This document shows positions 1 to 55,750 of a stretch of 64,000 bases of DNA, in pieces. Under the pieces are notes generated by a model. That model saw only the letters and a list, made by a program, of their open reading frames with translations. It did not search any database and was not told the DNA's origin. The position numbers were made by a program, and so were the translations under genes. Within the stretch, counting starts at the first letter, position 1. Every line of letters begins with the position of its first letter. The DNA is taken from contig NIVC01002599.1 of the NCBI GenBank assembly GCA_002269645.1, positions 1 to 64,000 on the forward strand, given 5' to 3'. Source of the DNA: Macrostomum lignano. Taxonomy: Eukaryota.

Positions 1-141
1 GCGCGATTTGGAGGTGGGGTGGGTGTCAACCCTCCTCGCCTCTCATTGGCTGGCGCCCCGATCACTAGGTGATCGATACCCGTATCGATATCGGCGACTC
101 GAACCCGCGACCCTCCCAGCCGCAGGCGCACCTACCGATAT

Positions 142-203
142 TAGATCCCAATAAATCAATCAGATCCCAAATCAATCAGATCCCAAATCAATCAGATCCC
201 AAG
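142..203 (+). repeat. 16-bp subterminal tandem repeat (gatcccaaatcaatca), about 3-4 copies; mirrored at about 8557-8620
   Basis: Read directly: agatcccaataaatcaatcagatcccaaatcaatcagatcccaaatcaatcagatccc. Confidence 0.9.
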
Positions 204-2529
204 CGCACCCTCCCGAGCCGCAGGCGCCCATGCAGCAGGCGCCATGCCGCAGGCACCCCGAGTGTACACTCTCCCGATATGTGTGTACACCGATATGTAG
301 TCATCGATACGGGCCTCTTCCCCTCTCTCACCTACATCTCAACTAGCGAAATCGAACCCAGGTCGCGCCCATACTAGGACACTACACGGTTGTGGGGTAT
401 AGGGAGCGAGAAGTTTCAACCCTAACGCTGACGCAGCCCTGTACAGTGAGAGTGTACGGGCAGAGAGGGGTGGGGCGGACAGAGAACCAGCCACTAGGTT
501 GTTATACTGTTGAAGCATAGGGAGCGAGAAGTTTTAACCCCGATGCTGACGCAGCCCTGTACACTGAGCGTGTACGGGCAGAGGGTGGGTGGAAAGAGAT
601 GTGAATAACACAGCCTGCTGCAGGAGCCGGATAGAGAGGCGCATGCTAGGACAGAGAGGTAGTGTGAGTCACACACACCCCACAGAGAAAGCCATACAGA
701 GGATAGAGAGCTCCCTCCCCAGTTGCAGGGGACAGAGAGGCAGGCAGGGTATGCAGGGGCATGCGAACCGTCAAGGGGCCACGCGAGGATAGAGTGGAGG
801 AGCAGAGATGTGTTTGGACAGAGAGCCAGCCACGTGTGCGTAGTGTGAGGGAACAGAAACATATGGAGCAGGAGGGAGATAGGAAGCAAACGCGCAGGGT
901 AAGGGAGCCATGCAGCAGGGAGCAGTGTACAGTGAGACACGGGCAGGGGTGGAGCCGTGCGTGGACAGAGCTGAACGGCACGGTCAGCTGCAGGAATAGG
1001 ATGATAGAGAGGCGCGGAGGGGGACAGAGAGCAGTGTGCAGGGTAGGCAGCCACGCAGGCTGGGGAACAGAGAGGCGCGTGTCAGCCAGTTACAGCCCGG
1101 GACAGAGAAGTATGAAGGGGGGCCTGGGACAGAGAAGTATGAAGGGGGGCCTGGGACAGAGTTGCGAGCAAGGCACAGAGAGAGGTAGGGTCCGGTAGCT
1201 ATGTATAGGCAGGGACCCACGCGAGGGCAGGACAGGGCAAAGCATGCAAATTACATGCAAGGGCAGTGAGGTGTGCGCGGAGGGAGACAGAGAGCAGTGT
1301 GTAGGGGTAGGTAACAGCAAACTTTAGTAGAGGCGCGTGCGGGGACGGAGAAACCAGTCTGAGCGTACAGAGACGTTACAGAGAGGTACACAAACAGAGA
1401 CCAAAGCGGGCAGAGCACGTGTAGGGACAGAGACGTGAGGGAGAATAGACCAAAACACGCTATGTATTTTCAAAAGTTGGTTTTAGTGCAGCATATTTAA
1501 TAGCGGGTAGTATAATAGTATGTACATAGTAGGTATAATGGTAGTAATAATAGTAAGTATATTAGCCCAAAAGGTAGGCTAAAACAGGCTAAACTGTGTG
1601 TACGCATCCTCATCACCCCACAAGCCCCCTCTCCCGCCAGACTCACTCTTCCATACCCTCCTGTATTGCTGTATGAAGGAAAATATAGTGTAAAAATACA
1701 GATCTTAACCGTCAGACCGCTGAAATCAGGGCACACTAGAGGGGTTTCGGGGTCTGCATGCTCTATGTAAGCTGTTTCAATTATGTTTTGAAAAAACTAG
1801 GGGCTTAAATACAACGTTTTATTCAAAAAGTAGGTTATTTTAATGAAATAGCTGACACAATCATTGTCGAGAGTAGAAATTTTTATAAGAAACCAGGCAT
1901 TTTAGCAAAAATAAACCTTCAAACCACATAAAATTGAATAAAAAGCAGACATTTTCAATTATAAACCGCAAGTATTTTAATAGAAAAGTAAGCAAACAAG
2001 GCACAAAACCAGCAAATTTTACCTTTTTATTTTAATGTTACTGATAAGGTAGAGAGTAGAAACTTGTGAGCTGTACGGAGTTAGAAAGTATTAACCATTA
2101 TGTATCGTATGAATTATTAGTTCAGTACCAGCCATTGGTCAAGCGAGCATTTATGAAGTTATTACGAGTGATGAAGGGATAGAGAGCTATATACAGGAAG
2201 ACAGTATCCTTCTAAACCACCACGAACAGATTGCTAATAGAGATAAGCTTTGTCTGTGTGCAGTATGAGTAAGCGAAGGCGGGGCAAATACTTTTCCACA
2301 TGCCGGACAGAACAGTATTGTGCTAGGATTTCTCTCGAAATCACGGTACGTTACTAGTTTTTATCACACCATCCAGATGCGTCAACTAGTCAGCAGTAGT
2401 CATTTATATGTTATTAGAACTTACAAACCCAGGTCAAGTAAATATTACAAAGAGTATATTACGTACACACGCCAACTCCGAATACCAAGCCATACTAGTC
2501 TACTTGCAGTGCTCCTGGAGGGAAGGGAC

Positions 2530-2660
2530 GGCGGGGTGTACACCGGCAGGGTGGGCGTCCAGCGAGTGTACATCTGACAGGATGGGTGTTCAGCAAGTGT
2601 ACATCTGACAGGGTGGGCGTTCAGCAAGTGTACCTTCAGCGTCGAGTAGGTGTACACCCG
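2530..2660 (+). repeat. About 29-bp tandem repeat, 3 copies, inside the arm; mirrored at about 6100-6230
   Basis: Copies of gtgtacatctgacagggtgggcgttcagcaa with variants. Confidence 0.85.
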
Positions 2661-4417
2661 TCAGTGGGGAACTCCACCCCTCCCACCAATGTCGTGTGCA
2701 TGCGGTTAGTCAGTATAGTGGTGGGGTAGACGGTGCAGGAAGGAAACCCAGATGCTGACGCTGCCCTGTACAGCGAGCAACCAGCCCCCTGTAGCAGGAG
2801 GGGGACAGAGAGTGCGTGGAGGCAGTAGGAGATAGAGGACGCTACCCGGCATGTCGCAGCACGCGGCGCGGGACAGAGGCAGTGTGTAAGTCACCCCCGC
2901 GGAGAGAGCTCCCCTGGCAGGAGGCGCGGGACAGAGAGGCGGTGAATCACACCCCACGGAGAGAGCCGTACAACGAGCTTCCCCACCCGAGTCCGGTAAA
3001 TATTACAGAGTATTACGTGCACACACCAGCCCTGAATACCAAGCCATACTAGTCTATCTGCAGTGCTCCCAGAGGGAAGGGATGGTCAGGAGTTACACAC
3101 CAAGAATGCATTCATACAAAGAGTACACAACTCGAGCCCAGACACCAAGTCACAGTCTACTTACAGTAGAGATGGTAGATTAATAGCAAGATTATATTAC
3201 AATTAGACCTCTAGCACATGAGGAGTGAAATTCAATAATAATTGAATTCAATAATAATACAACATTTAGACGTAGTAATTTAATTACAAAATACCACTAA
3301 CACTGAGCCAACGAATTGTAGGTTACAAAGGAGTTGCCACTCATATGGAAAGCCAGTATAATGCAGGTGTGTATTATTAAAACATAGACAAAAACGATGC
3401 AGACGTATATACACACTATTGATTTTGTACATGTACATTTCGGCATATTACCACACATCGCGGGCACATATTATATATCGGGGGATAGGTTAAAATACAC
3501 ACATCGTAGATGTAGAAGCAGACACAATGCAGGAAAATTATGATACGAGTGTACATATTAGTGCGTAAAAGTATCATATTATGACACCCTGTAGCACATA
3601 TTGACATAATGCAGGGGAAAATATTGACAGAAATAGTACACAATTGTAGAGGTAACAACCAGCCAACTAGTAAGGGCATCCAGCACTTGTTCAGGTTTTT
3701 TTTATTTCGAGACGAGTGTCATGCCCCCGCAAGAGATCTTATCAGAAATTTGTTGAACTCCACTGCAACTCTCCCCAGAGCCTCCAAATGGGAGTTTTAA
3801 CACTTGAGGGGATCCCGCTCAATGTACAGTGCGGACGGAGAGGGGTAACAGAAAGCGCTGCATCAGACCGCGGAGCTGCATTCCTCCCCGAGGTAGGCGC
3901 GTCAGCTCCCACTCCTCATTTAACCATCAAGTAAACTAAAGAAGTCAAGCAGAAAGCCTTACAATCACCCGCAACCAGCACAAGTAAGAGTACTTTCCAC
4001 TAGAGAGCCATAGTGCAAGATTCGCGAGCCAAGTTGAAGAAGCACACCAAATTACACTAAAGACATATGTATTAAAAAGCATACCGGCACCTCTACAAAA
4101 ACACAGTATGTACCGATTAAAGTTGCTTTTGGTGCAGTGTATTTAATAAAAAGCAGGTACCTAACACAAAAGTAGGCATCAATGCAGTGCACGGGCTAAA
4201 CTGTATTTACAAACGCAGGGCAACGAACTACACACAATGTAGCGCATAGACATAATTGTACACATAAATGTACGCAATTTCCGGTATATAGGACCAAATG
4301 TACGCAAATGTACACAATGTACACAAACACACACACACTCAGGCGTATTCACAGCAAGAGCTTCCTGCATGGCGCCATCGCCTGCGGCGATCGTGCTGCA
4401 GGATGCGCTGCAGGATG

Positions 4418-7400
4418 CGCCTGAGTGTGTGTGTGTTTGTGTACATTGTGTACATTTGCGTACATTTGGTCCTATATACCGGAAATTGCGTACATTTATG
4501 TGTACAATTATGTCTATGCGCTACATTGTGTGTAGTTCGTTGCCCTGCGTTTGTAAATACAGTTTAGCCCGTGCACTGCATTGATGCCTACTTTTGTGTT
4601 AGGTACCTGCTTTTTATTAAATACACTGCACCAAAAGCAACTTTAATCGGTACATACTGTGTTTTTGTAGAGGTGCCGGTATGCTTTTTAATACATATGT
4701 CTTTAGTGTAATTTGGTGTGCTTCTTCAACTTGGCTCGCGAATCTTGCACTATGGCTCTCTAGTGGAAAGTACTCTTACTTGTGCTGGTTGCGGGTGATT
4801 GTAAGGCTTTCTGCTTGACTTCTTTAGTTTACTTGATGGTTAAATGAGGAGTGGGAGCTGACGCGCCTACCTCGGGGGAGGAATGCAGCTCCGCGGTCTG
4901 ATGCAGCGCTTTCTGTTACCCCTCTCCGTCCGCACTGTACATTGAGCGGGATCCCCTCAAGTGTTAAAACTCCATTTGGAGGCTCTGGGAGAGTTGCAGT
5001 GGAGTTCAACAAATTTCTGATAAGATCTCTTGCGGGGGCATGACACTCGTCTCGAAATAAAAAAAACCTGAACAAGTGCTGGATGCCCTTACTAGTTGGC
5101 TGGTTGTTACCTCTACAATTGTGTACTATTTCTGTCAATATTTTCCCCTGCATTATGTCAATATGTGCTACAGGGTGTCATAATATGATACTTTTACGCA
5201 CTAATATGTACACTCGTATCATAATTTTCCTGCATTGTGTCTGCTTCTACATCTACGATGTGTGTATTTTAACCTATCCCCGATATATAATATGTGCCCG
5301 CGATGTGTGGTAATATGCCGAAATGTACATGTACAAAATCAATAGTGTGTATATACGTCTGCATCGTTTTTGTCTATGTTTTAATAATACACACCTGCAT
5401 TATACTGGCTTTCCATATGAGTGGCAACTCCTTTGTAACCTACAATTCGTTGGCTCAGTGTTAGTGGTATTTTGTAATTAAATTACTACGTCTAAATGTT
5501 GTATTATTATTGAATTCAATTATTATTGAATTTCACTCCTCATGTGCTAGAGAGGTCTAATTGTAATATAATCTTGCTATTAATCTACCATCTCTACTGT
5601 AAGTAGACTGTGACTTGGTGTCTGGGCTCGAGTTGTGTACTCTTTGTATGAATGCATTCTTGGTGTGTAACTCCTGACCATCCCTTCCCTCTGGGAGCAC
5701 TGCAGATAGACTAGTATGGCTTGGTATTCAGGGCTGGTGTGTGCACGTAATACTCTGTAATATTTACCGGACTCGGGTGGGGAAGCTCGTTGTACGGCTC
5801 TCTCCGTGGGGTGTGATTCACCGCCTCTCTGTCCCGCGCCTCCTGCCAGGGGAGCTCTCTCCGCGGGGGTGACTTACACACTGCCTCTGTCCCGCGCCGC
5901 GTGCTGCGACATGCCGGGTAGCGTCCTCTATCTCCTACTGCCTCCACGCACTCTCTGTCCCCCTCCTGCTACAGGGGGCTGGTTGCTCGCTGTACAGGGC
6001 AGCGTCAGCATCTGGGTTTCCTTCCTGCACCGTCTACCCCACCACTATACTGACTAACCGCATGCACACGACATTGGTGGGAGGGGTGGAGTTCCCCACT
6101 GACGGGTGTACACCTACTCGACGCTGAAGGTACACTTGCTGAACGCCCACCCTGTCAGATGTACACTTGCTGAACACCCATCCTGTCAGATGTACACTCG
6201 CTGGACGCCCACCCTGCCGGGTGTACACCCGCCGTCCCTTCCCTCCAGGAGCACTGCAAGTAGACTAGTATGGCTTGGTATTCGGAGTTGGCGTGTGTAC
6301 GTAATATACTCTTTGTAATATTTACTTGACCTGGGTTTGTAAGTTCTAATAACATATAAATGACTACTGCTGACTAGTTGACGCATCTGGATGGTGTGAT
6401 AAAAACTAGTAACGTACCGTGATTTCGAGAGAAATCCTAGCACAATACTGTTCTGTCCGGCATGTGGAAAAGTATTTGCCCCGCCTTCGCTTACTCATAC
6501 TGCACACAGACAAAGCTTATCTCTATTAGCAATCTGTTCGTGGTGGTTTAGAAGGATACTGTCTTCCTGTATATAGCTCTCTATCCCTTCATCACTCGTA
6601 ATAACTTCATAAATGCTCGCTTGACCAATGGCTGGTACTGAACTAATAATTCATACGATACATAATGGTTAATACTTTCTAACTCCGTACAGCTCACAAG
6701 TTTCTACTCTCTACCTTATCAGTAACATTAAAATAAAAAGGTAAAATTTGCTGGTTTTGTGCCTTGTTTGCTTACTTTTCTATTAAAATACTTGCGGTTT
6801 ATAATTGAAAATGTCTGCTTTTTATTCAATTTTATGTGGTTTGAAGGTTTATTTTTGCTAAAATGCCTGGTTTCTTATAAAAATTTCTACTCTCGACAAT
6901 GATTGTGTCAGCTATTTCATTAAAATAACCTACTTTTGAATAAAACGTTGTATTTAAGCCCTAGTTTTTTCAAAACATAATTGAAACAGCTTACATAGAG
7001 CATGCAGACCCCGAAACCCCTCTAGTGTGCCCTGATTTCAGCGGTCTGACGGTTAAGATCTGTATTTTTACACTATATTTTCCTTCATACAGCAATACAG
7101 GAGGGTATGGAAGAGTGAGTCTGGCGGGAGAGGGGCTTGTGGGGTGATGAGGATGCGTACACACAGTTTAGCCTGTTTTAGCCTACCTTTTGGGCTAATA
7201 TACTTACTATTATTACTACCATTATACCTACTATGTACATACTATTATACTACCCGCTATTAAATATGCTGCACTAAAACCAACTTTTGAAAATACATAG
7301 CGTGTTTTGGTCTATTCTCCCTCACGTCTCTGTCCCTACACGTGCTCTGCCCGCTTTGGTCTCTGTTTGTGTACCTCTCTGTAACGTCTCTGTACGCTCA

Positions 7401-8759
7401 GACTGGTTTCTCCGTCCCCGCACGCGCCTCTACTAAAGTTTGCTGTTACCTACCCCTACACACTGCTCTCTGTCTCCCTCCGCGCACACCTCACTGCCCT
7501 TGCATGTAATTTGCATGCCTTGCATGCCCTGTCCTGCCCTCGCGTGGGTCCCTGCCTATACATAGCTACCGGACCCTACCTCTCTCTGTGCCTTGCTCGC
7601 AACTCTGTCCCAGGCCCCCTTCATACTTCTCTGTCCCAGGCCCCCTTCATACTTCTCTGTCCCGGGCTGTAACTGGCTGACACGCGCCTCTCTGTTCCCC
7701 AGCCTGCGTGGCTGCCTACCCTGCACACTGCTCTCTGTCCCCCTCCGCGCCTCTCTATCATCTATTCCTGCAGCTGACCGTGCCGTTCAGCTCTGTCCAC
7801 GCACGGCTCCACCCCTGCCCGTGTCTCACTGTACACTGCTCCCTGCTGCATGGCTCCCTTACCCTGCGCGTTTGCTTCCTATCTCCCTCCTGCTCCATAT
7901 GTTTCTGTTCCCTCACACTACGCACACGTGGCTGGCTCTCTGTCCAAACACATCTCTGCTCCTCCACTCTATCCTCGCGTGGCCCCTTGACGGTTCGCAT
8001 GCCCCTGCATACCCTGCCTGCCTCTCTGTCCCTGCAACTGGGAGGGAGCTCTCTATCCTCTGTATGGCTTTCTCTGTGGGGTGTGTGTGACTCACACTAC
8101 CTCTCTGTCCTAGCATGCGCCTCTCTATCCGGCTCCTGCAGCAGGCTGTGTTATTCACATCTCTTTCCACCCACCCTCTGCCCGTACACGCTCAGTGTAC
8201 AGGGCTGCGTCAGCATCGGGGTTAAAACTTCTCGCTCCCTATGCTTCAACAGTATAACAACCTAGTGGCTGGTTCTCTGTCCGCCCCACCCTCTCTGCCG
8301 TACACTCTCACTGTACAGGGCTGCGTCAGCGTTAGGGTTGAAACTTCTCGCTCCCTATACCCCACAACCGTGTAGTGTCCTAGTATGGGCGCGACCTGGG
8401 TTCGATTTCGCTAGTTGAGATGTAGGTGAGAGAGGGGAAGAGGCCCGTATCGATGACTACATATCGGTGTACACACATATCGGGAGAGTGTACACTCGGG
8501 GTGCCTGCGGCATGGGCGCCTGCTGCATGGGCGCCTGCGGCTCGGGAGGGTGCGCTTGGGATCTGATTGATTTGGGATCTGATTGATTTGGGATCTGATT
8601 GATTTATTGGGATCTAATATCGGTAGGTGCGCCTGCGGCTGGGGAGGGTCGCGGGTTCGAGTCGCCGATATCGATACGGGTATCGATCACCTAGTGATCG
8701 GGGCGCCAGCCAATGAGAGGCGAGGAGGGTTGACACCCACCCCACCTCCAAAATCGCGC
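4418..8759 (-). repeat. Right arm of the giant inverted repeat; the true end may be about 8781-8783
   Basis: Mirror of 1-4345. Pairing starts at cgcctgagtgtgtgtgtgtttgt (4418), the complement of acaaacacacacacactcaggcg ending at 4345. Confidence 0.97.
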
Positions 8760-9888
8760 CTTACGGAATCCCTTAGTAGTGGGAACTGCTGCTTCCCTTA
8801 GACTGGCCCCCGCTGTGAACCCCCGCCTTTCAATGCTTGTTGCAGTACAATGCTTTTTTGCTTTTCCCCCTTAATTTGTTTCAAGCTCAGACAATTTTCA
8901 CTATACCTGCTACCGACTGATTCCTGCAGGGCAACCTGCTTGACAAGAGTCACAGACAAATGCGAATTACGGATGAAAAATCTTTTTTAAGATTAAAAAT
9001 TTATTGTTTTTGTGTTTGTTTCTTAAAATTTCCATGAACTTTGGGGGTCCAACCCCCTGTAAATGAGTGTATATGCTTGACAAGGACTTTTACTAGTTAA
9101 ATCTGCCTCGGGACGCTTTTATTCAACCCTTCACGTTTCCATTGGCAACAAAAGTTTCTGGATAAAATTCCTTCTCACACGCTGATCAAACAGTGCTTGC
9201 CGTGGAGAAGCCTATCTATCTGCTGGTACGTCGGCTGATCGAAGCCCAGTCAAGCAGGACAGCAATAAGACCCTGTCACAGCCCATGCAGTCTGAATCCG
9301 GTCGATTGTTTAATCAGTTTGAACCTATATGGAACAGTTGCAGTTGTAATTGCAATTGGCAAACGTGAGAGTCATTTCTAAGAAAATCGAGTCTAACGTC
9401 CTTCTATTTCAGCAGTTGAAAGACGCAATTTTTGCTTTCATATTCCATCTTTATCGAGAATGGAAGTTTTAAATTTTTGGCACTAAATTAACAATTTCTT
9501 ACCGATTGTGGACTTAAAATTTGCAAGTATTTCGATAAAAGCTAAATTTGAAAGTTGACCAATTTAAATTTTGAAAATGCATCGATTGAAGATTGGAAAC
9601 TGTGAGTGTTTTTTTTCCTGTGTTTATATGTTTCTCATCACGGATTTTTCGTCACTTTTTACATCAGTTATGCGATTTGATTGCTCACTTGATGGCAGTG
9701 TGAACAAGTCCTCAGTGTTGTTATCCAATGAATGCTGTAATCATGTAGGAATTACTGAGAGGTCAAGGCTCATGGGGGTTTTCTGAAATGCTGTGACTCA
9801 TGTGGGTTAAAAGTTACATGCAGTTTATTCAAAAAATTTTACTCCTCTGTTTGTTGCCTCCCCAGCGGGGGGGGGGCAGATGGCTAGT

Positions 9889-42095: not shown

Positions 42096-45000
42096 ATGCT
42101 GCTGTTGAGGGCCCTCATTCTGGCTTTGCCAGCTGCTGCGGCTCTGGCGACCTCTGACTCCAGCTGCAGCCAGGCGGCAGTCCCGGCCGACTGCTCTAGG
42201 AGGGACCTGCGCCGCTGCGGCCGTCCGATAGCCAGCCGGTGCCAGTCGGCATCGCCGAGCATGCCCCGGCCTCGGTGGTGCCGTTGCTGCATCGACTGCG
42301 ACACCGCTAGACTTGGCGCCAATGCCGGCGCCACCAAAGGCGACAAGACCAGCTCGCGGCGCCAACTGCGACGGCGACTGCGTCGACTTGTGCGACGTCT
42401 CGGCGCTAATCGCGACGCAGCTGACGGTCGGCGGCTGCCAGCAGCCCGGCGCGACCGGATGATGGAGCAGCTGCTGGATCTGGAGCTGCGCCTGCTCAGC
42501 CTGAGAAAACGCAGGCGCAAAAGTGCAAAAAGAGGCCGAAAGAAAAACACAAGGAATGCAGCAGCAGCTGAGACTGCAGTCTCAGCAGGCAAAAGCAAAA
42601 TTGGAGGCGGCCGCGGTGCCTGGAGCCCTGGCAGTCTGGAGCAGCAATATTTTGTTGACAGACCGGCCTCTCAAACAGGTGTGGCCAACTCAGCTGAGAA
42701 CGGTACTGTGGCCAGCTCAGGCCGGATTCTGGCTTTGATGAGCTATCTGGAGGGGCAGAGGACGGATAAAGTGAAAGGTAGGTGGCTTGGTGTGTACTAT
42801 AGGTTCCGGGTTCGATGCACGAGCAAAACTATTAAAGTACTTTCAAAAGCCCAAAACTTGGTAACCTGAAATTTCATAATTCCTAGTCTACACGGAGTAC
42901 TTTATTATAACAACCGTTTGGGGTTGCTGGGGTTGCAAATTTCTGAATCGCCCAAGTGGTTTCACATTCACACGCTCACACAGGGTGAACAGCGGCCCTG
43001 ACTTTTTAATTGTCAGGCATTTACACTCTGTGTGCCCTGGGGGTTGGCCCTCATGGCTGTGAATCGCACGTCAACCCATGGGTCAATTTTTCGTTCACAA
43101 GCCCCAAGTGAATGAGTGTTTGCGCACGGAATCGAACCAAGGGATCGCGGCCCGAGAGTCAGGCGCCTTTGCCGCGAGCTGCTCTGCATTTCGAACCTAT
43201 CGAGCTACTCTCGTAATTAAAAAATGCAAAATGAAACAGTCTTCAGTGTAGAGAGTTAAGTGTTGAAACGCTCATCAACTGCTACACCTGTGTAGTTCGG
43301 ATTTTAACCTCGAGTTGAAAAAATTGCGCAGCGACTCTGGCAATTTTAACGCACTGCAAATTTCGAACCATATTTATAGTTACGCGTGCAGTCGGCGGCA
43401 GTGCAGAGCGCGCAGTTGCGTCAATCAGGGTTTGCCATGCAATTTGGCCTGGCCAGACTATTTGCATAGCAACTAGGTCTGTCACCAAATCTATGTGAAC
43501 CATTAATTAGATCTAGGCACAGTTTAGATTAGCAAACCATAAACTGGCCTGCGAAACAAGGACTGTCAGCTACAGCTGACCTGCCCAAAGTGCCATTAGG
43601 GGGGGAAAGTGAAGTTCAGTTCCTGATTAAGTGTAGTTGGGAATTTTTGTAGTGCTTCCCGTAATAAATTTGAACAGGAAATCTTGAGGAAAAGTTCCAA
43701 AGTTTAAAAACCTAACCTATTGACTCAAGAAGACAGAGACAGAATGGATGGAATTCTAGCAAAATTTATCAAAGACATGACACAAGCCAGGTTGCAACTG
43801 CCCTGAAGGCTTCACATTTTTTTCTTTGAAAATATAAAAATCTGCCCCCTCTCGTGCACATTTACTAATAGTAATACAATAAAAAAATAATATTCAAACC
43901 CCATATTCGAGCTGTCAACCGTTCGCAATGCTAAGCAAAAAAGCAAAGCATTCAAAACGAAACAAATGCGGGTCCCGGTCGCATCTTTTAGGCTTGAAAA
44001 TTTCTATACACCTCCTGTGTATATAGCTATAGGGTATATTTTTATTGTGCACTAAACAACAGGAAGAGAGCAATGATGCCAGTTCGCTGAGGCGAAAGAC
44101 TGACTCCCTCTTTGCCTTTCTCTCTCACTGTACGAGCCAGCTGTTATTCACCCCCATTGTGTTGTAAATAAGCCTATTGAGCGTCTCATTGAAAGGCAAC
44201 AATAAGGTTGCTCATCGAGTCCATGCAGATATAAGAGGCGAACGCAGTGCAATAAAAATGTGCAAAGACAGCGCAGCAGGCTGCAACACTGGAAGCGCCA
44301 AAGGCACGCAGGCCGGCCACCGCCATGATTCCCGCCGCGCTAGTCGAAGCCGTCCAACGGGACAGCGTCGATGCTCTGCGCCGCCTGCTGACCTCCACGC
44401 CGCCGTCGCCCGACACTCTGTCGGCTGCCCTGGCGCTGGCCGCCGCCCTGCCCTGCCAGCTGGAAACGGCGGCCGTCTTGCTGGAATTCGGCGCCAACCC
44501 GGAGCGCGCCTTGGCCCTGGTAGCCGCCTGCGATCAGGACAGGCGCGACTGTCCGGAATTGGCGCGCCTATTGGTGGCGCGCGGCGCCAGCGTCAACCAG
44601 GTCAGCCGGCCGGACGGCAAGCCGGCGCTGCTGCTGGCGGTGCGGCGCGGCCACGCGGGCCTGACGCGCCAGCTGATTGAGGTTCGAGCCGACGTCAACC
44701 TGGCTGAGCCGAATCTCCGCTGGACGCCGCTGCTGGCTGCCGTCAGCATCGACCGGGCGGATCTGGCCAAGCTGCTCCTGGATGCCCGCGCCGACCCCAA
44801 CGCCATGAGCTCGGACGGCACTGCGCTGGCAATGGCCGCCTGCCGCGGCCATCCCGGCCTCGTCCGCCTCCTGCTCGATCGCCGAGCCGATCCGAATCTC
44901 TGCGCACCCGTTGACCCGGATGCGAAACCGGATGCGGACCAGGACGCTGATCCGGACGATCTGGACAGCTACAGCCCGCTGGCCTACGCTGCCTGCAACG

Positions 45001-48000
45001 GGCACCGCGAGTGCGTGGAGCTCCTGCTGCGAGCCGGTGCGCGGCCCGACGCCCCGACAAGCGCGCTGGGCCGCACGCCGCTCATCCTGGCCGCCCTGAA
45101 CGGCCACGCCGGCGTCGCTGCCGCCCTGCTGGCCGCCGGCGCCAACCCGAATCTGGCCGAACCGCTCCACCGCTGGACGCCGCTAGTAACGGCGGTGCAC
45201 ACCGACGCCGTCGAGGTTGTAAATGTCCTCCTGGCCGACCGGCGGACCGACGTCAACTGGCTGACCGACGACGGCACCGCTCTGGCCAAGGCGGCCGAGG
45301 CTGGCAACGTTGCCTTGGTGACGCGCTTGCTGTCGGCCGGGGCAGACGCCGACAAAGCCGACGAGGTGGACGGGCACACGCCGCTGATGTGGGCGGCCCA
45401 GTCCGGCCACGCTGGAGCCATCGAGCGCCTACTGAGCCGCGGTGCCCGGCCGGAGCGCGAGAACTCGGCCGGCCAGTCGGCCATCCTGCTGGCCGCCTGC
45501 AACGGCCATGCCGCGGCTCTGGAGCAGCTGCTGAGGCGCTCGGAAAGCAGCGCCGCGAAGCAGCAGGCGGTCAACGCCGCCATGCAGGCCGTGGCTGACG
45601 ACGCTGGCAGGCAGCTGGAGCCGGGCGTGGCTCGGCGCATTCGCAACCTGCTGGAGACGGCTCGGGAAGAGTGAGTGCTCGGTTTGTTTGCTTTTAGCTC
45701 TGCCCATAGATACGGGTCCGCGAGAATTGTGCGATGAGCTTAATCTACAGAGGGGGCACCAGCTACAGAGGGGGCACCAGCTACAGTAGGGCTGGCTAGA
45801 AAAGTCCAGGACGCTGGCTGCTTACCGACAACCTATTTTACGAGTAGAAGATAAGATTAGGCAGGAAAATCTCATAAATTCCGGGGTGAGTTCTCATGCT
45901 CTCATAGAAAGGCTTGACTAGAATGATTTTCCACTCGCAATCTTGGTGCCTAAATAAAGCTAAACAAGTCTCATTTAAATAGTCCAGACTCAGTATTATG
46001 TTCACTTGAAGTACATTTTCGGATTCAGATTGACTTCTTTTCGCGTCATAGATTTTATTTTAAATACGCTCGTAATTCTTCACCATTTCAGAGTGGTGGA
46101 GAACCAGAGCAACAATCTGGTTGGCGGTCTGGTCTCGCCAAAGTCGGGCCGCTCTGTCAGGGACAGCAGCGGAGTTCCTGGGCCAGCCGCCGCCGCTTCC
46201 GCCGCTGTCGCCGCCCCTGCAGCCCCTCCCGTAGTGAGCGGCACCATGACCCGACTGATCAGCAGCCAGACGGTGCTGCCACAGTGAGTTCTCAAAGAGG
46301 GTAGCTGAGATGCCAAAACTCTCAAAGAGGGTAGCTGAGATGCCAAAACTCTCAAAGAGGGTAGTTGAGATGCCAAAACTCTCAAAGAGGGTAGCTGAGA
46401 TGCCAAAACTCTCAAAGAGGGTAGCTGAGATGCCAAAACTCTCAAAGAGGGTAGCTGAGATGCCAAAACTCTCAAAGAGGGTAGCTGAGATGCCAAAACT
46501 CTCAAAGAGGGTAGCTGAGATGCCAAAACTCTCAAAGAGGGTAGCTGAGATGCCAAAACTCTCAAAGAGGGTAGCTGAGATGCCAAAACTCTCAAAGAGG
46601 GTAGCTGAGATGCCAAAACTCTCAAGGAGGGTAGCTGAGATGCCAAAACTCTCAAAGAGGGTTGCTGAGATGCCAAAACTCTCAAAGAGGGTAGCTGAGA
46701 TGCCAAAACTCTCAAAGAGGGTTGCTGAGATGCCAAAACTCTCAAAGAGGGTAGCTGAGATGCCAAAACTCTCAAAGAGGGTAGCTGAGATGCCAAAACT
46801 CTCAAAGAGGGTAGCTGAGATGCCAAAACTCTCAAAGAGGGTAGCTGAGATGCCAAAACTCTCAAAGAGGGTAGCTGAGATGCCAAAACTCTCAAAGAGG
46901 GTAGCTGAGATGCCAAAACTCTCAAAGAGGGTAGCTGAGATGCCAAAACTCTCAAAGAGGGTAGCTGAGATGCCAAAACTCTCAAAGAGGGTAGCTGAGA
47001 TGCCAAAACTCTCAAAGAGGGTAGCTGAGATGCCAAAACTCTCAAAGAGGGTAGCTGAGATGCCAAAACTCTCAAAGAGGGTAGCTGAGATGCCAAAACT
47101 CTCAAAGAGGGTAGCTGAGATGCCAAAACTCTCAAAGAGGGTAGCTGAGATGCCAAAACTCTCAAAGAGGGTTGCTGAGATGCCAAAACTCTCAAGGAGG
47201 GTAGCTGAGATGCCAAAACTCTCAAAGAGGGTTGCTGAGATGCCAAAACTCTCAAAGAGGGTAGCTGAGATGCCAAAACTCTCAAAGAGGGTAGCTGAGA
47301 TGCCAAAACTCTCAAAGAGGGTAGCTGAGATGCCAAAACTCTCAAAGAGGGTAGCTGAGATGCCAAAACTCTCAAAGAGGGTAGCTGAGATGCCAAAACT
47401 CTCAAAGAGGGTAGCTGAGATGCCAAAACTCTCAAAGAGGGTAGCTGAGATGCCAAAACTCTCAAAGAGGGTAGCTGAGATGCCAAAACTCTCAAAGAGG
47501 GTAGCTGAGATGCCAAAACTCTCAAAGAGGGTAGCTGAGATGCCAAAACTCTCAAAGAGGGTAGCTGAGATGCCAAAACTCTCAAAGAGGGTAGCTGAGA
47601 TGCCAAAACTCTCAAAGAGGGTAGCTGAGATGCCAAAACTCTCAAAGAGGGTAGCTGAGATGCCAAAACTCTCAAAGAGGGTAGCTGAGATGCCAAAACT
47701 CTCAAAGAGGGTAGTTGAGATGCCAAAACTCTCAAAGAGGGTAGCTGAGATGCCAAAACTCTCAAAGAGGGTAGCTGAGATGCCAAAACTCTCAAAGAGG
47801 GTAGCTGAGATGCCAAAACTCTCAAAGAGGGTTGCTGAGATGCCAAAACTCTCAAAGAGGGTAGCTGAGATGCCAAAACTCTCAAAGAGGGTAGCTGAGA
47901 TGCCAAAACTCTCAAAGAGGGTAGCTGAGATGCCAAAACTCTCAAAGAGGGTAGCTGAGATGCCAAAACTCTCAAAGAGGGTAGCTGAGATGCCAAAACT

Positions 48001-51000
48001 CTCAAAGAGGGTAGCTGAGATGCCAAACTCTCAAAGAGGGTAGCTGAGATGCCAAAACTCTCAAGGAGGGTAGCTGAGATGCCAAAACTCTCAAGGAGGG
48101 TAGCTGAGATGCCAAAACTCTCAAAGAGGGTTGCTGAGATGCCAAAACTCTCAAAGAGGGTAGCTGAGATGCCAAAACTCTCAAAGAGGGTAGCTGAGAT
48201 GCCAAAACTCGTAGAAAAAGTACAAAGATCTTTCACTCGCAATTGCTAAAACCTAAGTTCCGATTTTTTATCGCCATTTTCATCCCCAGCGGCTTCCTGC
48301 AGAGCCTGGACATCCGCCGCGACACCCTTCGGTACCTGAGCCAAGGTCATTTCGGCTGCGTCTACCAAGCCCAGCGCGCTGACGGTCACTACGTGGTGCT
48401 CAAAGTGGTGTCCGCTCCATTTCGGCCCAACCAGCCTGACCAGGCTAGCTCAGTCTCCGAGGCCAACCGGCGCGAGGTCGAACTGATGCAGGCGATGAGG
48501 CACCGGAACATTGTGCAGTTCTACACCGCCCAGCTGGTGCCCGGCTCGCTCGTCATCTGCATGGAGTACATCCACGGCGAGAACCTCCGGCTGTACAGGC
48601 AGCGCCTCGGCAGCCTGGCAGAGTCATTGATCGTCAATTACCTGAGCCAGATCTGCCACGGCCTGAACTATGTGCACAGCCAGAATGTCTGTCATCGCGA
48701 TGTCAAGTGCGAGAACATCATGCTGCAGCTGTCCACCGGCCTGGTGAAGATCATTGACTTCGGCTTGTCAAAGAAGATTCACGCCACTGAAGTGTACCAT
48801 TCAGGAGTTGGCACCCTGCTGTGGATGGCCCCGGAGGTGCTGCTATTTGCCGAGGATCCGACACGTCGTCGGCGGCGCTACGACCCGAAGGCCGCCGATG
48901 TGTACTCGCTCGGCTGCAGCCTGCACGAGCTGTGCACCGGGGTGCCGCCGCTGTACAGCGAGGAGGGCCCGGGCTTCCTCAAGTGCCTGTACCACGCCAA
49001 GCGGACCGATGAGCCGCTGCCGAGGACGCCCTGCTGCGCTGCGGCATGAGCCAGAGCCTCCGCTCCTTCTATGCGGCCTGCGTAGCCAAGAATCCATTGG
49101 CCAGGCCGACCCTGCCGCAGCTGCTGGCGCATCCCCTCATTGTTGGAGCCGCCTACTGACTCCTCTATTTAATGTATTGTTGCCGACTGACGGACCTTGG
49201 CGTTCACGAGTTCTATTAGAAATTCTGTTATTCAGACTGTACGGCTTTTTATTGAGAAATTTATTCCAGCTGCAGATGCTAAAATATACAGCTCGAATTT
49301 ATTGTTGGCTTGCTATCTTATAACTGATAGAATTCAATGGAGAGTGACAGTATTATCAGATATTTACAGTACTATCAACAGTACTATCAACAGACTATCT
49401 ACAGTGCTATCTACAGTACTATCTACAGTACTATCAACAGACTATCTACAGTGCTATCTACAGTACTATCTACAGTACTATCAACAGACTATCTACAGTA
49501 CTATCTATACAGTACTATCTACAGTACTATCTACAGTACTATCAACAGACTATCTACAGTGCTATCTACAGTACTATCTACAGTACTATCAACAGACTAT
49601 CTACAGTACTATCTATACAGTACTATCTACAGTACTATCTACAGTGCTATCTACAGTACTATCTACAGTGCTATCTACAGTACTATCTACAGTGCTATCT
49701 ACAGTACTATCAACAGACTATCTACAGTGCTATCTATACAGTACTATCTACAGTACTATCAACAGACTATCTACAGTACTATCTATACAGTACTATCTAC
49801 AGTACTATCTACAGTACTATCTACAGTACTATCTACAGTGCTATCTACAGTACTATCTACAGTGCTATCTACAGTACTATCAACAGACTATCTACAGTGC
49901 TATCTATACAGTACTATCTACAGTACTATCTACAGTACTATCTACAGTGCTATCTACAGTACTATCTACAGTACTATCTACAGTACTGTCTACAGTACTA
50001 TCTACAGTATTATCTACAGTGCTATTTACAGCACTATCTACAGTAATATTTACAGCAGTATACATCGACTATGATTATGATCAATTATGATATCTGCGGG
50101 CAGAGCAGCCCCGGCAGTTCGTGCAGTTCACAGCCATGAGGGCCAACCCCCAAGGCACAGAGAGTGTACATGCCTGACGGTTAGAAAGTCAGGGCCACTG
50201 TACACCCCGTGTGTGAGTTCCTATTATGATTTATTTTTAAAAAACTTAAATTTACTGCCAAGGCATAATAAAAGTTGCCGCCGAATCTCCACGCAGCCAC
50301 CTGCCGTTCGGTGACCTGCAGCTGGGACAAGGGCCAGCTGTGCCTGGTAAACATCCAGGACCTGCCAATCTGCAGCTGCGTCACCAACGATCGCTGCCTC
50401 GCAGAACGGCGCAGACTTCGTCAACGCCGACGCAACGGACGTCGCCGATCGGGAAGGCGTCGAGGTCGTCGGCGGCCGCGTCGCAACGGTTTGGACGGCC
50501 GGTCGAATGTCACGACGACGGAGTCGACGCCGCTGATGAAGCGGCAGTTCTTTGGCCGGGTCTGCGCCCTGCTGAGCGGCCTGCCTGCCGAGCGCAGCTA
50601 CACCAGCCTCTGCCACATGCAGGCCGCCGCCTGCGCCAGCGACTCGCAGGTGAGCAGTCAGGGCGGCTGGATTCTCGAGAGTCAATTTGAGAACAGCACT
50701 GATTCTGTTTGAGAACAGCACAGATTCTGTTTGAGAACAGCACAGATTCTGTTTGAGAACAGCACTGATTCTGTTTGAGAACAGCACTGATTCTGTTTGA
50801 GAACAGCACTGATTCTGTTTGAGAACAGCACAGATTCTGTTTGAGAACAGCACTGATTCTGTTTGAGAACAGGCCTAAATATGCTTATAAAGAGCAATAA
50901 ATCTGTTGAAAACAGTTTTTTAAGCCTAGATTAAAATCCCCCAAGGGAGAATCGCCCCAAAGCACAGGTGAGAATCGCCCCAAAGCACAGGTGAGAATCG

Positions 51001-51877
51001 CCCCAAAGCACAGGTGAGAATCGCCCCAAAGCACAGGCAGAATCGCCCCAAAGCACAGGTGAGAATCACCCCAAAGCACAGTGAGAATCGCCTCAAAGCA
51101 CAGGTGAGAATCACCCCAAAGCACAGGTGAGAATCGCCCCAAAACACAGGTGAGAATCACCCCAAAGCACAGGTGAGAATCGCCCCAAAGCACAGGTGAG
51201 AATCGCCCCAAAGCACAGGTGAGAATCACCCCAAAACACAGGTGAGAATCGCCTCAAAGCACAGGTGAGAATCACCCCAAAGCACAGGTGCGAATCGCCT
51301 CAAAGCACAGGCAGAATCGCCTCAAAGCACAGGTGAGAATCACCCCAAAGCACAGGTGAGAATCGCCTCAAAGCACAGGTGAGAATCACCCCAAAGCACA
51401 GGTGAGAATCGCCTCAAAGCACAGGTGAGAATCGCCCCAAAGCACAGGTGAGAATCACCCCAAAGCACAGGTGAGAATCGCCCCAAAACACAGGCAGAAT
51501 CGCCCCAAAGCACAGGTGAGAATCGCCCCAAAGCACAGGTGAGAATCACCCCAAAGCACAAATGAGAATCACCCCAAAGCACAGGTGAGAATCACTCAAA
51601 GCCCATGTGAGAATCCTTCTGTCACTGCAAGAAAATCAAATTACAGTCTCAGCCAAGACAATTCACATTCAACCCAAAACTGAAAACAACTCCAATTAAG
51701 GTTCTGCGCCTGTCCAATGGCGCCTGCTCCAATCACGACCCGGAGTCGGAGGCCCTGGAGACTCTCACTAATCAAACGTGCGCCAGATGCCAGGCGCGCG
51801 GTTGGCGCGGCAGAGGCTGCAAAAAATGGCGCCGCAAATGCCGGAGGCCGCCGGTTCTGTCAAGTGACGAATTCTGA
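42096..51877 (+). CDS. Secreted follistatin (FOLN+Kazal)-domain protein, about 403 aa; proposed exons 42096-42777, 50297-50649, 51701-51877
   Basis: Exon 1 has a signal-peptide-like MLLLRALILALPAAAALA and a phase-1 donor g|gtaggt. Exon 2 has a phase-1 acceptor and TCRSVTC...C...PICSC...C...RVCA...SYTSLCHMQAAAC. Exon 3 completes the Kazal motif (VLRLSNGAC). The total of 1212 nt is in frame. The exon 2-3 join is well supported; the exon 1-2 join is inferred. Confidence 0.6.
42962..43186 (-). mobile_element. tRNA-derived SINE family 2, copy A
   Basis: The minus strand reads gcagagcagctcgcggcaaagg...ggttcgattccgtgcgc...cacagccatgagggccaacccc...gtcagggccgctgttcaccctgtgtgag. This is shared with the copies at 50100 and 55541. 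Confidence 0.8.
44325..49159 (+). CDS. Ankyrin-repeat Ser/Thr kinase (STE11/MAP3K-like catalytic domain), about 802 aa; exons 44325-45670, 46092-46283, 48290-49159; frameshift near 49020
   Basis: About 10 ankyrin repeats (TPLLAAV, GHxxxVxLLL). A donor ga|gtgagt overlaps the apparent stop at 45672, and the phase-2 joins fit. Kinase motifs: QGHFGCVY, VVLK, HRDVKCEN, IIDFG, GTLLWMAPE, DVYSLG. Subdomain XI (CVAKNPLARPTLPQLLAHP) lies in the next frame. The total is 2409 nt if one base is restored. Confidence 0.85.
46290..48210 (+). repeat. Highly homogeneous 30-bp intronic array (ctcaaagagggtagctgagatgccaaaact), about 64 copies
   Basis: Read directly. It fills almost all of intron 46284-48289. 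Confidence 0.98.
49355..50062 (+). repeat. 12-bp array (tacagtactatc) with variants
   Basis: Read directly from the sequence. Confidence 0.95.
50100..50218 (+). mobile_element. SINE family 2, copy B, internally deleted
   Basis: It keeps the 5' gcagagcagc and the 3' body cacagccatgagggcc...gtcagggcc but lacks the B-box region. Confidence 0.7.
50688..50872 (+). repeat. 22-bp intronic array (gagaacagcactgattctgttt), about 8 copies
   Basis: Read directly from the sequence. Confidence 0.93.
50947..51600 (+). repeat. 23-bp intronic array (gagaatcgccccaaagcacaggt), about 28 copies
   Basis: Period measured at 50947, 50970 and 50993. Confidence 0.95.
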
Positions 51878-52659
51878 GCAGTTCTGACTGCATCCTGGAG
51901 TCTGGTTGGCATCAAAAGTGAATAAAATTCTTATTTGTTGTGAAGTTTCTTTTCCTGTTGTGTGCAGTTAAACAAAACTAATTAAAATAATTATTTTTCG
52001 CCCTAGTAGAAATGTAGCAAAGGCCGAGATGCACTAGCGAGATAGGAATTGTTAGCACTTAAATTAAAAAATTGTCTGTGGTTGAAACCCCAATTATTGC
52101 AATACAATATTCTACATGTAATGTAAAAACTTTAAAAATTCGAATTCCCTAACTCGCTAGACGCTAGTGCAGTTTGAGTTTGAAATGAAATTAAGTTGGC
52201 CTTCAAATAAACTTCCCTTTCTCTTACTACCTGACTGGAATGAGGAAATCCTTTAGCAGGCTATTGATGATTGCCAATGAAAGAGATGAGAGAGAAGAGA
52301 GAAGAGAGCTGAGACGAGAGACAAGCCTTGAGCGGGCCTGGATTGCTATTGTGAAGTTTCAAAGTACCCGAGGGCTGGCCGGAGTTTAGAGCGTGAATTA
52401 AAGTCGGTCACAGTCATTATTTAATATTTATCTATCTATTTATTTATTTATTCATTTATTTTTTCACATAAGTCGACAACTCTCAGCCACAGATCTCTGA
52501 AACACTGCATGAATGGGCAAATTTTTTAGTTACTGATGATACTACTTACATTTGGGCGTCTGTTTAGAGTTTTGTCGTGATAGATTTGCGTTTCAAAAAG
52601 TTACTCAGCAGTCAAGCGAAATCTGCGTTCGGGAGTTTAAATATTGACTGCCGGCCATA

Positions 52660-53242
52660 GGTTAGGGTGGTTTAGGCTAGAGCTATGTTAAAGTTTAGGT
52701 TAGAGTTTATTTTAGGGTTTAGGTTAGGGTTTAGGTTAGGTTTTGAGTCAGAATTTAAGTTAGGGTTACAGTTTAGGTTAAGGTTAGAGTTTAGGTCAGG
52801 GTTACAGTTTAGGTTAAGGTTAGAGTTTAGGTCAGGGTTACAGTTTAGGTTAAGGTTAGAGTTTAGGTCAGGGTTACAGTTTAGGTTAAGGTTAGAGTTT
52901 AGGTCAGGGTTACAGTTTAGGTTAAGGTTAGAGTTTAGGTCAGGGTTACAGTTTAGGTTAAGGTTAGAGTTTAGGTCAGGGTTACAGTTTAGGTTAAGGT
53001 TAGAGTTTAGGTCAGGGTTACAGTTTAGGTTAGGGTTAGGTTGGGGTTAGGGTTAGGGTTTTGGTTAGGGTTAGTGTTTAGGTTAGAGTTTAGGTTAGGG
53101 TTTAGGTTAGGTTTAAAGTTTAGGTTAGGGTTTAGGTTAGGGTTAGAGTTTAGGTTAGGGTTTAGGTTAGGTTTAAAGTTTAGGTTAGGGTTTAGGTTAG
53201 GGTTAGAGTTTAGGTTAGGGTTTAGGTTGGAGCTTAGGTTGG
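52660..53242 (+). repeat. Interstitial degenerate telomere-like (TTAGGG-derived) array with a 36-bp higher-order unit
   Basis: The unit gggttacagtttaggttaaggttagagtttaggtca occurs about 7-8 times. Canonical ttagggttaggg is present near 53030-53060. Confidence 0.85.
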
Positions 53243-53767
53243 GCCCATGGTCGGCAGTCAATTTGGGGTAGTTGATTTTTTGACAAATCGATTTTTCCGA
53301 GCTTTGGTGACGACTTCTTGTCAGGAACTATTAGCTTTGTAACTGAGGTAGAGGATGATTGCATCTAGCTGCAGTGTTTCTAGATCTGTGCTTTGAATCC
53401 ACTAATTTCACCGAAAGAATATAGCTGTCTAAATTTAGTGAAACTCGCAACATTTTTTGTTAAAAATTGCCTAACAACTTCTATAGCATAACAGCAGCCC
53501 GTTTCCACCCCAGTTGCAAACCCTAGCAAACATGCAGCTGTGCATCACCCACATAATCTTTCTATTTTAAAACAAATCGCCAAGTTTTTGTGTAAATTCA
53601 TGTTCGCTTGTGATTTTTTTGTTTCGCCTTGTTGTAGGAAAGCAAACAAAAATATAAGAAACAGCAGCAACAACATCTTTGAACCATCTTTTTGTTGCAT
53701 GAGACATCTGCAAAACTTTTTTTGTTTCATGTTGTCCTTCTAAACAGTTGGAGTGAAAGCATGGAGG

Positions 53768-54211
53768 AGTCAGTCAGTCAGTCAGTCAGTCAGTCAGTCA
53801 GTCAGTCAGTCAGTCAGTCAGTCAGTCAGTCAGTCAGTCAGTCAGTCAGTCAGTCAGTCAGTCAGTCAGTCAGTCAGTCAGTCAGTCAGTCAGTCAGTCA
53901 GTCAGTCAGTCAGTCAGTCAGTCAGTCAGTCAGTCAGTCAGTCAGTCAGTCAGTCAGTCAGTCAGTCAGTCAGTCAGTCAGTCAGTCAGTCAGTCAGTCA
54001 GTCAGTCAGTCAGTCAGTCAGTCAGTCAGTCAGTCAGTCAGTCAGTCAGTCAGTCAGTCAGTCAGTCAGTCAGTCAGTCAGTCAGTCAGTCAGTCAGTCA
54101 GTCAGTCAGTCAGTCAGTCAGTCAGTCAGTCAGTCAGTCAGTCAGTCAGTCAGTCAGTCAGTCAGTCAGTCAGTCAGTCAGTCAGTCAGTCAGTTAGTCA
54201 GTCAGTCAGTC
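53768..54211 (+). repeat. (GTCA)n microsatellite, about 110 copies
   Basis: Read directly from the sequence. Confidence 0.98.
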
Positions 54212-54467
54212 ATCTACCTAATTTCTACAAAAAGCAAGTGCAGCGTTTGAGTGAGTTGTTCGGCGTTCAGTTTTGTTGTTGTAAAAAGCATCATCTAACA
54301 CGAGAAACGAAAATATTGAACGCATCATTTAGGCTTGTTGAGGTGTTGAAACTTGTTATATTTTACACACAAAAGGATCAGCTTGGCCAACAGTAACCAA
54401 TTATTAACCAATCGTATTGTTTTCTCTATAATAAAGGGTTTTCAGTCATTTAGTATATTTATCCAAT

Positions 54468-54862
54468 TCAGACCAGGGCCATAGCTGGGCACATCTGCAC
54501 GGCTACCTTAGGCAGGGTGCCAGTCTTTCCCAGGGACTCCAGGCACCAGCTGTTGGCGCAGCCCAGAAGGTCAACTTCCTGCAATTTTTTAAATATTGGC
54601 GATTTTAATTAAACAAATTCTATTCAAATAGCAGAGCATCATTGCTCAGATCTGTGCTCACCTTGCCCTCGCCGTGGAAGCAATAGTTGCAGACGAACAG
54701 GCAGCGCTGCCAGCCGGACATCTCGGCGAAGTGCTCCGTCTCAATGCCCTCGGGTACGCCGCCGGCTGAACCACCACCCGAACGGACGGTGAAGGCCTGG
54801 CAGCCGATGGCAGCGGCCAGGAGCAGGCAGGCGATGGCGGACAGGCAGGGGAGCTGGCTCAT
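54468..54862 (-). CDS. Secreted six-cysteine neuropeptide precursor, eclosion-hormone-like framework, 103 aa; exons 54862-54662 and 54578-54468
   Basis: Signal peptide MSQLPCLSAIACLLLAAAIGCQA. The phase-0 GT-AG intron (aag|gtgagc...ttgcag|gaa) gives WQRCLFVCNYCFHGEGK-EVDLLGCANSWCLESLGKTGTLPKVAVQMCPAMALV. Confidence 0.75.
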
Positions 54863-55540
54863 GCTGATGCGCTTGGCGAGAGTCTTGCGATTAGCGGTAA
54901 AAATGCTTTGCTTGCAATAGCGACTCGGTCCGGGAGCTGAGCGATCGACACTGTGAGCTGGCCGTCCAGCCGGCGCCGGTGCTGCTCCTTTTAAGCGGCC
55001 ACTTCCCCACCCCCATCCATGATTTCTTGGTCACGAGTCGGTATAGCGATGCTCCGCTGAGCAGGAAGTGGAGCAGGTCTTGGGGCAATTTTTTGGGTCC
55101 TGATTGCTCTCTTCCTATAAGCTGCAGCCTCCTCAGTTGCCCCGGGGCTGGGCATGTATAATTGCATCGGTATCTTTGAAGCAACTGAGCTACGCCGAGC
55201 TTTTTCGAGCATACTCTCGAAAGCAATTTATAAACCGCTTTCGGCTGGATAAATTTGGAAATGCAGATTTCTCATAATTACAATTATTCCCTTCCCTGAC
55301 GGAATTGCCTCAGGTCAGGTTGGTGAGGCAGGTCTTCTAGAACGGAAGGTTTTTTGTTTCCTGCAATTTTCTTGCTAGTTTTTTCAAAGAGCGAGTGGCA
55401 GCTATAAATATACACTGTGACTCACTTCAGTCTCAAGTATTGAGCTGTTCTTGAATTGGAAGATGACACGATATGGCACTGCACAATATACACGCTATTA
55501 CAGATTATAGGTAAATTTAAACTTCATGTAGCGGGAGGTG

Positions 55541-55750
55541 GCAAAGCAGCTCAGTGTGGTCAACGGTCTGACTCTCGCTCTGCGACCCCAGGTTTGATCC
55601 CGTGCGCAAGCACATTGATTCGGGGTTGAACTCGGTTGTCGTGCGGTTCACAGCCATGAGGACCAATCCCCAAGGCACAGAGAGTGTACATGCCTGACGA
55701 ATAAAAAAGTCAGGGCCGCTGTTCACCCTGTGTGAGCGTGTGTGTGAGTG
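55541..55750 (+). mobile_element. SINE family 2, copy C
   Basis: tRNA-like head gcagctcagtgtggtcaa...ggtttgatccc and the same 3' body as copies A and B. Confidence 0.8.

Follow-up and report, generated by a model that had tools for sequence, protein, structure and literature searches.

The contig C2599 belongs to a 764-Mb eukaryotic assembly, and its first 64,000 nucleotides (the window) open with a long inverted repeat folded around a short central sequence. This locus raises the question of whether that centre is a functional hairpin end, as was first proposed, a remnant of the event that produced the palindrome, or a product of sequencing. The element is a dispersed, gene-less palindrome of approximately 8.8 kb with two arms of approximately 4.37 kb each, the main parts of which are localised in the window as follows:

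1..4345, + strand: left arm; the contig begins inside this arm, and the tip and left target duplication missing here are present in contig C4529
4346..4417, no strand assigned: unique central spacer; a weak imperfect hairpin with its apex at 4377-4391 and a 12-bp tandem repeat at 4395-4418
4418..8780, + strand: right arm, 4363 bp; no ATG frame exceeds 109 codons, and none of 30 Polinton ORFs gives a tblastn match
4418..4560, + strand: innermost part of the arm, with a (GT)n tract and GTACA repeats; together with its mirror at 4203-4345 it forms the zone in which symmetry breaks in 13 other copies

In the window, pairing of the two arms begins at 4345/4418 and reaches the very start of the sequence; 4330 positions match, one is substituted, and there are 21 small indels, 19 of which involve one base. 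The first-pass annotation had placed the end of perfect pairing at 4345/4418, which is correct, and outward the perfect stretch extends to 3886/4877. Its description of the spacer also holds: positions 4346-4350 pair with 4413-4417 through two G-T wobbles, 4360-4369 pair with 4397-4406 with a single mismatch, the apex lies where it had been placed, and the tandem duplication is recovered by TRF as a 12-bp repeat at 4395-4420.

A long-read fold-back or an assembly artefact at the contig start would be the simplest explanation of such a structure. The left arm is cut off by the start of the window contig, and C2232 starts at an equal distance within its arm; single-base indels are also numerous in the window copy, whose centre is too short and too symmetric. 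Used as a query, however, the centre returned 61 candidates, and the same centre is found at about 40 scored places with their own flanks and 6-bp duplications, in agreement with the earlier claim of a biological symmetry centre rather than an adapter. Ten close copies share 99.2-99.5% identity with the window arm over about 4.4 kb (C660 in pieces) before passing into unrelated flanks, and whole palindromes sit deep in large contigs, where the left and right flanks are unlike each other. The spacer is also present in short-read contigs of all four runs (4/4). The embedded palindromes and the short-read contigs rule out a read fold-back or adapter origin of the centre, and an artefactual palindrome is extremely improbable.

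For the palindrome itself the artefact explanation is thus refuted, while it stands for the length of the window spacer, where no more than a few bases of the copy are affected. Among the 43 copies examined, 41 have a spacer match; the spacer is 75 bp long in 35 of these, 26 of them identical in sequence, 77 bp in three, 74 bp in two and 72 bp in the window contig only. C303 carries a further spacer variant and C176 has lost the spacer. Contig C4529, which represents the same locus as the window (1094 bp of shared right flank with no mismatch and 14 gaps), has a 75-bp spacer, and the three bases absent from the window, two after 4368 and one after 4392, are present in the short-read contigs of 4/4 runs. 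The 72-bp length probably reflects an error in the consensus, and without these three bases the window copy looks more symmetric than the rest of the family.

This bears on the hairpin described in the first-pass annotation, whose self-complementarity is real, while its extent is modest and partly dependent on the probable consensus error. Folded as single-stranded DNA, the 72-bp spacer gives z-scores of -2.5 (2/200 shuffles) and -2.3 (17/500), and the 75-bp spacer -1.9 on the + strand (20/500) and -1.0 on the - strand (76/500), with a folding energy of -19.3 kcal/mol; three of the 58 arm windows reach z <= -2. The self-reverse-complement score of the 72-bp form is reached by 4/2000 shuffles and that of the 75-bp form, in which the left half can be aligned with the right half in reverse complement, by 25/2000. 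Weak and decayed as a palindrome, the 75-bp spacer has a GC content of 63% and an apex displaced by about 3 nt from the axis of the arms. Its best match among the coding elements covers 50 bp at 70% in the subterminal repeats of C493 and C691 and is not significant (E 0.33), and against Rfam it stays below the gathering score, the best model being mir-3149 (45.7 bits versus 100). No RNA data set is recorded as containing the sequence.

A selected function of the centre can be envisaged in one form. The spacer would be the hairpin end of a half-genome of 4.4 kb whose other end is protein-primed; the hairpin end itself would be covalently closed, mismatched and present in flip and flop forms, and the palindrome would be the dimer junction of this half-genome. 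The top and bottom strands would give two complementary imperfect hairpins, the spacer is nearly gap-free in 31/31 loci with substitutions below the median, and four loci (C1494, C2267, C382 and C56b) consist of one arm and the spacer only. The conservation is, however, unexceptional. Projected on one copy, the 31 loci place the spacer tenth of 59 windows in substitutions per site, with seven variable columns against a median of eight, in a set of copies found with the centre as the query, a bias which favours the spacer; special conservation was not found in this ranking. Some palindromes carry the spacer off-centre, and these retain both ends and the target duplication, as does at least one palindrome that has lost the spacer, C176. 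The half elements C1494, C2267 and C382 show, by eye, no 6-bp duplication at the centre-side junction, and a second arm is absent from the next 10 kb.

The orientation of the spacer likewise argues against this form. In a perfect palindrome it can be defined by outside markers alone, and relative to the flanks the spacer is inverted in none of six repeatedly assembled loci (13 contigs; five locus groups by contig comparison, the sixth by eye over 90 bases), the contigs of a locus agreeing on which flank lies to which side of it. Flip and flop isomers, for which a test had been suggested, were not observed among these loci, the data being consensus contigs, in which rare inversions would be hidden. 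Arm markers approximately 1.0 and 3.0 kb from the centre occur on opposite arms in two same-locus contig pairs, reflecting either mis-phasing or real exchange. Outside the spacer, at distances of 26 and 67 bp, two putative A/G markers are found on its 3' side in 10/10 young contigs other than the window and are too close to the spacer to serve as a test of inversion; the former occurs in 1/5 short-read runs and the latter in 0/5, two of these runs following other subfamilies. The proposed analogy with the telomeres of poxviruses, ASFV and parvoviruses is not supported, since the centre is GC-rich, internal to a chromosomal insertion with host flanks and present in one orientation, and the element is without a resolvase. 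A functional hairpin end is quite improbable, and the two strands of the predicted hairpin would be flip and flop in a limited sense only. The centre looks like a scar rather than a device, so that little is gained from the telomere proposal as long as no free hairpin forms come to light.

The preferred reading is that the spacer is likely an old fold-back junction, a scar which escapes copying from arm to arm. The surrounding sequence behaves as a likely fragile site or rearrangement hot spot. Among 34 distinct spacer-bearing loci, arm colinearity is unbroken in 16, first breaks at most approximately 140 bp from the spacer in 13 and breaks farther out in five, so that 13 of the 18 first breaks are close to the centre; C625 was counted as colinear because only its GT tract differs. 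With the 33-bp indel of C1300 left out, 13 of 17 first breaks near the centre have a probability of 7e-17 under a uniform-break model, the statistic taking only the innermost break per locus, which favours the centre. The breaks occur on both sides of the spacer and vary in sequence. Such breaks would be explicable by hairpin or cruciform extrusion (PMC7999016) and could alternatively derive from slippage within the GT and GTACA repeats next to the spacer. The fragility of palindromes falls as the spacer lengthens (PMC7999016).

The ends of the element are more informative with regard to its origin. It starts with 5'-ACTACT and finishes with AGTAGT-3' at position 8780 of the window, i.e. (ACT)2//(AGT)2, and the right end comprises:

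8754..8780, + strand: variable 27-bp tip ending in AGTAGT-3'; mosaic between loci and matched within a locus
8781..8786, + strand: the 6-bp target site duplication, right-hand copy; its left-hand counterpart is visible in C4529

A 6-bp target site duplication is present in 37/39 distinct loci with both ends recovered, or 22/26 when counted by contig; eight contigs were removed to obtain the 39-locus set, namely C201, in which the flanks too are inverted, and seven that represent loci already counted, the window among them. The 27-bp tips occur in 28 versions in these 39 loci, about 10 differences apart, and comparison of the versions suggests that they are apparently built from a few recurring modules. 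Despite this diversity between loci, the two tips of one locus are identical in 33/39 loci, where chance identity is 0.02, and one base apart in a further four. The two loci with unlike tips (10 and 14 differences) are polymerase-coding elements. Substitutions private to one copy are present on both arms in 7/14 copies, with up to 27 of them in a copy. Matched tips would also result from conversion between the arms in the chromosome, consensus calling may inflate the arm identity within a copy, and either conversion or consensus smoothing may mimic part of the end-matching signal.

Elements with the same ends, including C493, C691, C1052, C211, C173, C1131 and others, code for a protein-primed polymerase of family B (pPolB, PF03175). 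The same tips are found on palindromes and on polymerase elements, which also have a subterminal motif and the 6-bp duplications in common; for a 13-base word from the subterminal region there are 317 occurrences and for a control five, some of the 317 lying away from element ends. Between whole polymerase elements and the palindrome the common part is limited to the outer ~350 bp, at ~82% identity. A longer match is found in two chimeric elements:

4580..8780, + strand: part of the arm matching one end of the pPolB-coding chimeras C428 and C4851 at 99.5-99.6% identity

In C428 and C4851, 4.2 kb of the arm is joined to the 3' part of a polymerase gene, 163 bp from the spacer, a junction indicating that palindromes and polymerase elements recombine. 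As parents of the arm the two chimeras were rejected, since the polymerase gene begins mid-frame at the junction, and they are read as recombinants. For the inner ~4 kb of the arm no parent was found. Neither pPolB nor a retroviral-like integrase was identified in the arm, which has no long frame and no tblastn match to the 30 Polinton ORFs, and tblastn with the gene-rich Polintons of this genome, most of whose ORFs lack Pfam names, recovered no capsid, ATPase or protease. A short member of the family, C190, has a Tc1/mariner-like frame, which is read as a candidate nested insertion.

Matches to integrase or capsid are absent from the nearest coding relatives as well. An integrase-coding element with the tip of the palindrome family was found at 0/10 loci sampled from 2318 candidates, and an integrase-plus-capsid partner with ACTACT ends at none of these 10 loci, the end-motif survey for such a partner covering the first 100 of the 317 matches. 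Six gene-rich Polintons with visible ends (C2506, C318, C10, C291, C110 and one nested in C106) start with AGTAGT, and the helper polymerase matches the three gene-rich Polinton polymerases tested at about 25% over short stretches. The want of a same-ended integrase partner among the 10 sampled loci, together with the long gene-less inverted repeats and small loop, would also suit a non-autonomous element of foldback type that belongs to an ordinary family of cut-and-paste transposases and is kept symmetric by chromosomal gene conversion around a neutral centre. This is nevertheless improbable, as the tips, subterminal motif and 6-bp duplications are common to protein-primed polymerase elements, and a 6-bp target site duplication with (NNN)2 ends is a mark of Polintons (PMC8097293). 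By sequence comparison the element appears to belong to a Polinton-related family, an assignment which is firmer than the replication steps considered below.

Polintons have been described with 6-bp target site duplications, a short terminal tandem repeat and a racket-like single-strand intermediate (PMC4196379, PMC4046053), their replication via a folded single strand being a model drawn from sequence in these sources. The matched variable tips and the private substitutions on both arms fit this racket or panhandle model, in which a displaced strand pairs its ends and one of them serves as the template for the other. The enzyme of the polymerase-only elements would start protein-primed strand displacement at either end and release a single strand, whose arms would pair over their full length with the spacer as the loop of a 4.4-kb hairpin racket. 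Copying from the duplex end would make one arm from the other, which would account for tips and copy-specific changes matching at both ends. The innermost ~35 bp on each side would escape copying and keep old asymmetric changes, giving rise to the bulged hairpin. The double-stranded form would then be inserted by a Polinton integrase, whose donor was not among the sampled loci, and arms are deleted or rearranged at a centre whose fragility is the presumed cause. The 75-bp imperfect spacer would make the long palindrome more tolerable. Taken together, a snap-back palindrome with Polinton-type ends, copied and inserted in trans by Polinton enzymes and with a decayed junction at its centre, is the probable explanation of this element. 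A bolder version, which is unlikely, holds that the family is a heritable satellite, a gene-less hairpin replicon existing as an extrachromosomal duplex of 4.4 kb that is protein-primed at one end and closed with mismatches at the other, and whose strands would be the flip and flop forms. It would be copied by integrase-less, polymerase-only mini-Polintons, with which modular tips are swapped, and inserted by a gene-rich third partner.

The snap-back palindrome can be compared with several known systems. In common with Polintons/Mavericks it has terminal inverted repeats, ends made of a doubled trinucleotide, a target site duplication of 6 bp and linked pPolB elements (PMC8097293, PMC4196379, PMC6431247), while their genes are absent here. 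Intact vertebrate Polintons have inverted repeats of 46-1447 bp, in contrast to ~4.37 kb here, and their common ends, (AGT)2//(ACT)2, are reversed in this element (PMC8097293). Non-autonomous Polintons are named in the literature (PMC5499653). Palindromic ones were not found in the titles and abstract openings searched, and the portion of a nematode Polinton preprint covered contains neither 'palindrom' nor 'non-autonomous'. Kapitonov and Jurka (2006) reportedly described a zebrafish non-autonomous Polinton with multi-kb repeats.

The snapback subgenomes of AAV are alike in having a genome end duplicated in inverted orientation around a loop, in their dependence on a helper and in the occurrence of symmetric and asymmetric forms; template switching has been proposed for them, and they have the potential to form double-stranded RNA (PMC8235507). 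AAV has Rep-nicked hairpin ITRs and many new junctions, whereas the element here is integrated and heritable, with Polinton-type ends and one fixed, old junction. Poxvirus hairpin telomeres, which are resolved from concatemer junctions, resemble it in that a long inverted repeat could form an incompletely paired hairpin at its centre, as at a concatemer junction; they are AT-rich genome ends with two isomers, a resolution site and a viral resolvase (PMC8956199). The spacer here is, by contrast, GC-rich, internal, dispensable in some copies and of one orientation per locus. Foldback transposons and long quasi-palindromes also have long gene-less inverted arms, a central spacer and centre-proximal rearrangements (PMC7999016 for the quasi-palindromes). 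The ends and target site duplication nevertheless tie the present element to pPolB-coding elements, and its arms are mostly unique sequence rather than tandem arrays.

The centre of the palindrome is less special than first proposed, and the tips and the helper arrangement are the better leads. With an imperfect spacer of 75 bp between their arms, palindromes of several kilobases persist in the chromosomes and yet break at the centre, and this young family of dozens of copies, in which the variable tips differ between loci in concert at the two ends, offers a natural record of the end-to-end copying which the racket model supposes.

The terminal 27 bp of the palindromic element, the gene-less family of ~8.8 kb (window 8754-8780; both ends, 39 loci), are a mosaic of a small set of recurring modules. 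Across the same loci the tips generally agree at the left and right end of one locus, while between loci they diverge at ~10 bases of the 27 bp, even where arm identity is 99.6%. These tip sequences are common to the palindromic and the polymerase-only elements, Polinton-like elements with the same ends. The latter are abundant, measure 9-10 kb, carry inverted repeats at most ~0.9-1.2 kb long and code for a protein-primed polymerase which is distant from those of the gene-rich Polintons. No match to an integrase or capsid was found in them, and several of their reading frames are broken in the assembly. A second polymerase family has 5'-ACTACG ends and 6-bp duplications, with a PC4-like gene in two members and inverted duplications of polymerase sequence in C157. 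The members of the two families, as stretches (L) of assembly contigs (C), are:

L081 (C493), L083, L078/L079, L142/L143, L144/L145, L146/L147 and L161: polymerase-only elements
L138/L139 (C2757), L140/L141 (C1263) and L148/L149 (C157): second polymerase family

Gene-rich Polintons are also found nested within other elements, and several members are reduced:

L091:6993 to L155:9112 (C106): gene-rich Polinton within a palindromic member, with its own AGTAGT ends and 6-bp duplication
L162-L165 (C271): gene-rich Polinton within a polymerase-only member, recognised by gene order
L105:4785-9093 (C1), L170 (C168), L158 (C251) and L157 (C190): reduced members, 1.1-4.3 kb

One tip of the C1 member is cut to ~20 bp, the 6-bp duplication being present nonetheless, while the C190 member contains a Tc1/mariner-like frame. 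The inverted repeat of C201 (L112) extends past the element into the flanking DNA, and C261 (L153/L154) holds a second, partial copy in tandem, ending in the same flank. Other genes and repeats comprise:

L120:5574-7562 and 7744-9540: frame with MACPF/stonustoxin-like and fibronectin domains and adjoining GTPase frame, beside the C2506 Polinton
window 12327-63300: abundant tandem arrays of 4- to 70-bp units, in the rest of the window
window 52716-53228: telomere-like repeats
window 42969-55742: short inverted repeats

The window's contig (C2599) and C2232 start at nearly the same point, just inside the arm tip, suggesting that palindromic elements break the assembly. Contigs of sequencing run X1 differ from the arm by clustered A>G changes:

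window 4445, 5196, 5204, 5223 and 5224: A>G differences of run X1

A comparable cluster lies on contig C1009, close to one end. The run X1 cluster was found in none of the arm copies examined, nor in three further runs. Run X1 is, at a guess, RNA, and A-to-I editing of a hairpin transcript may possibly be the source of its A>G cluster.
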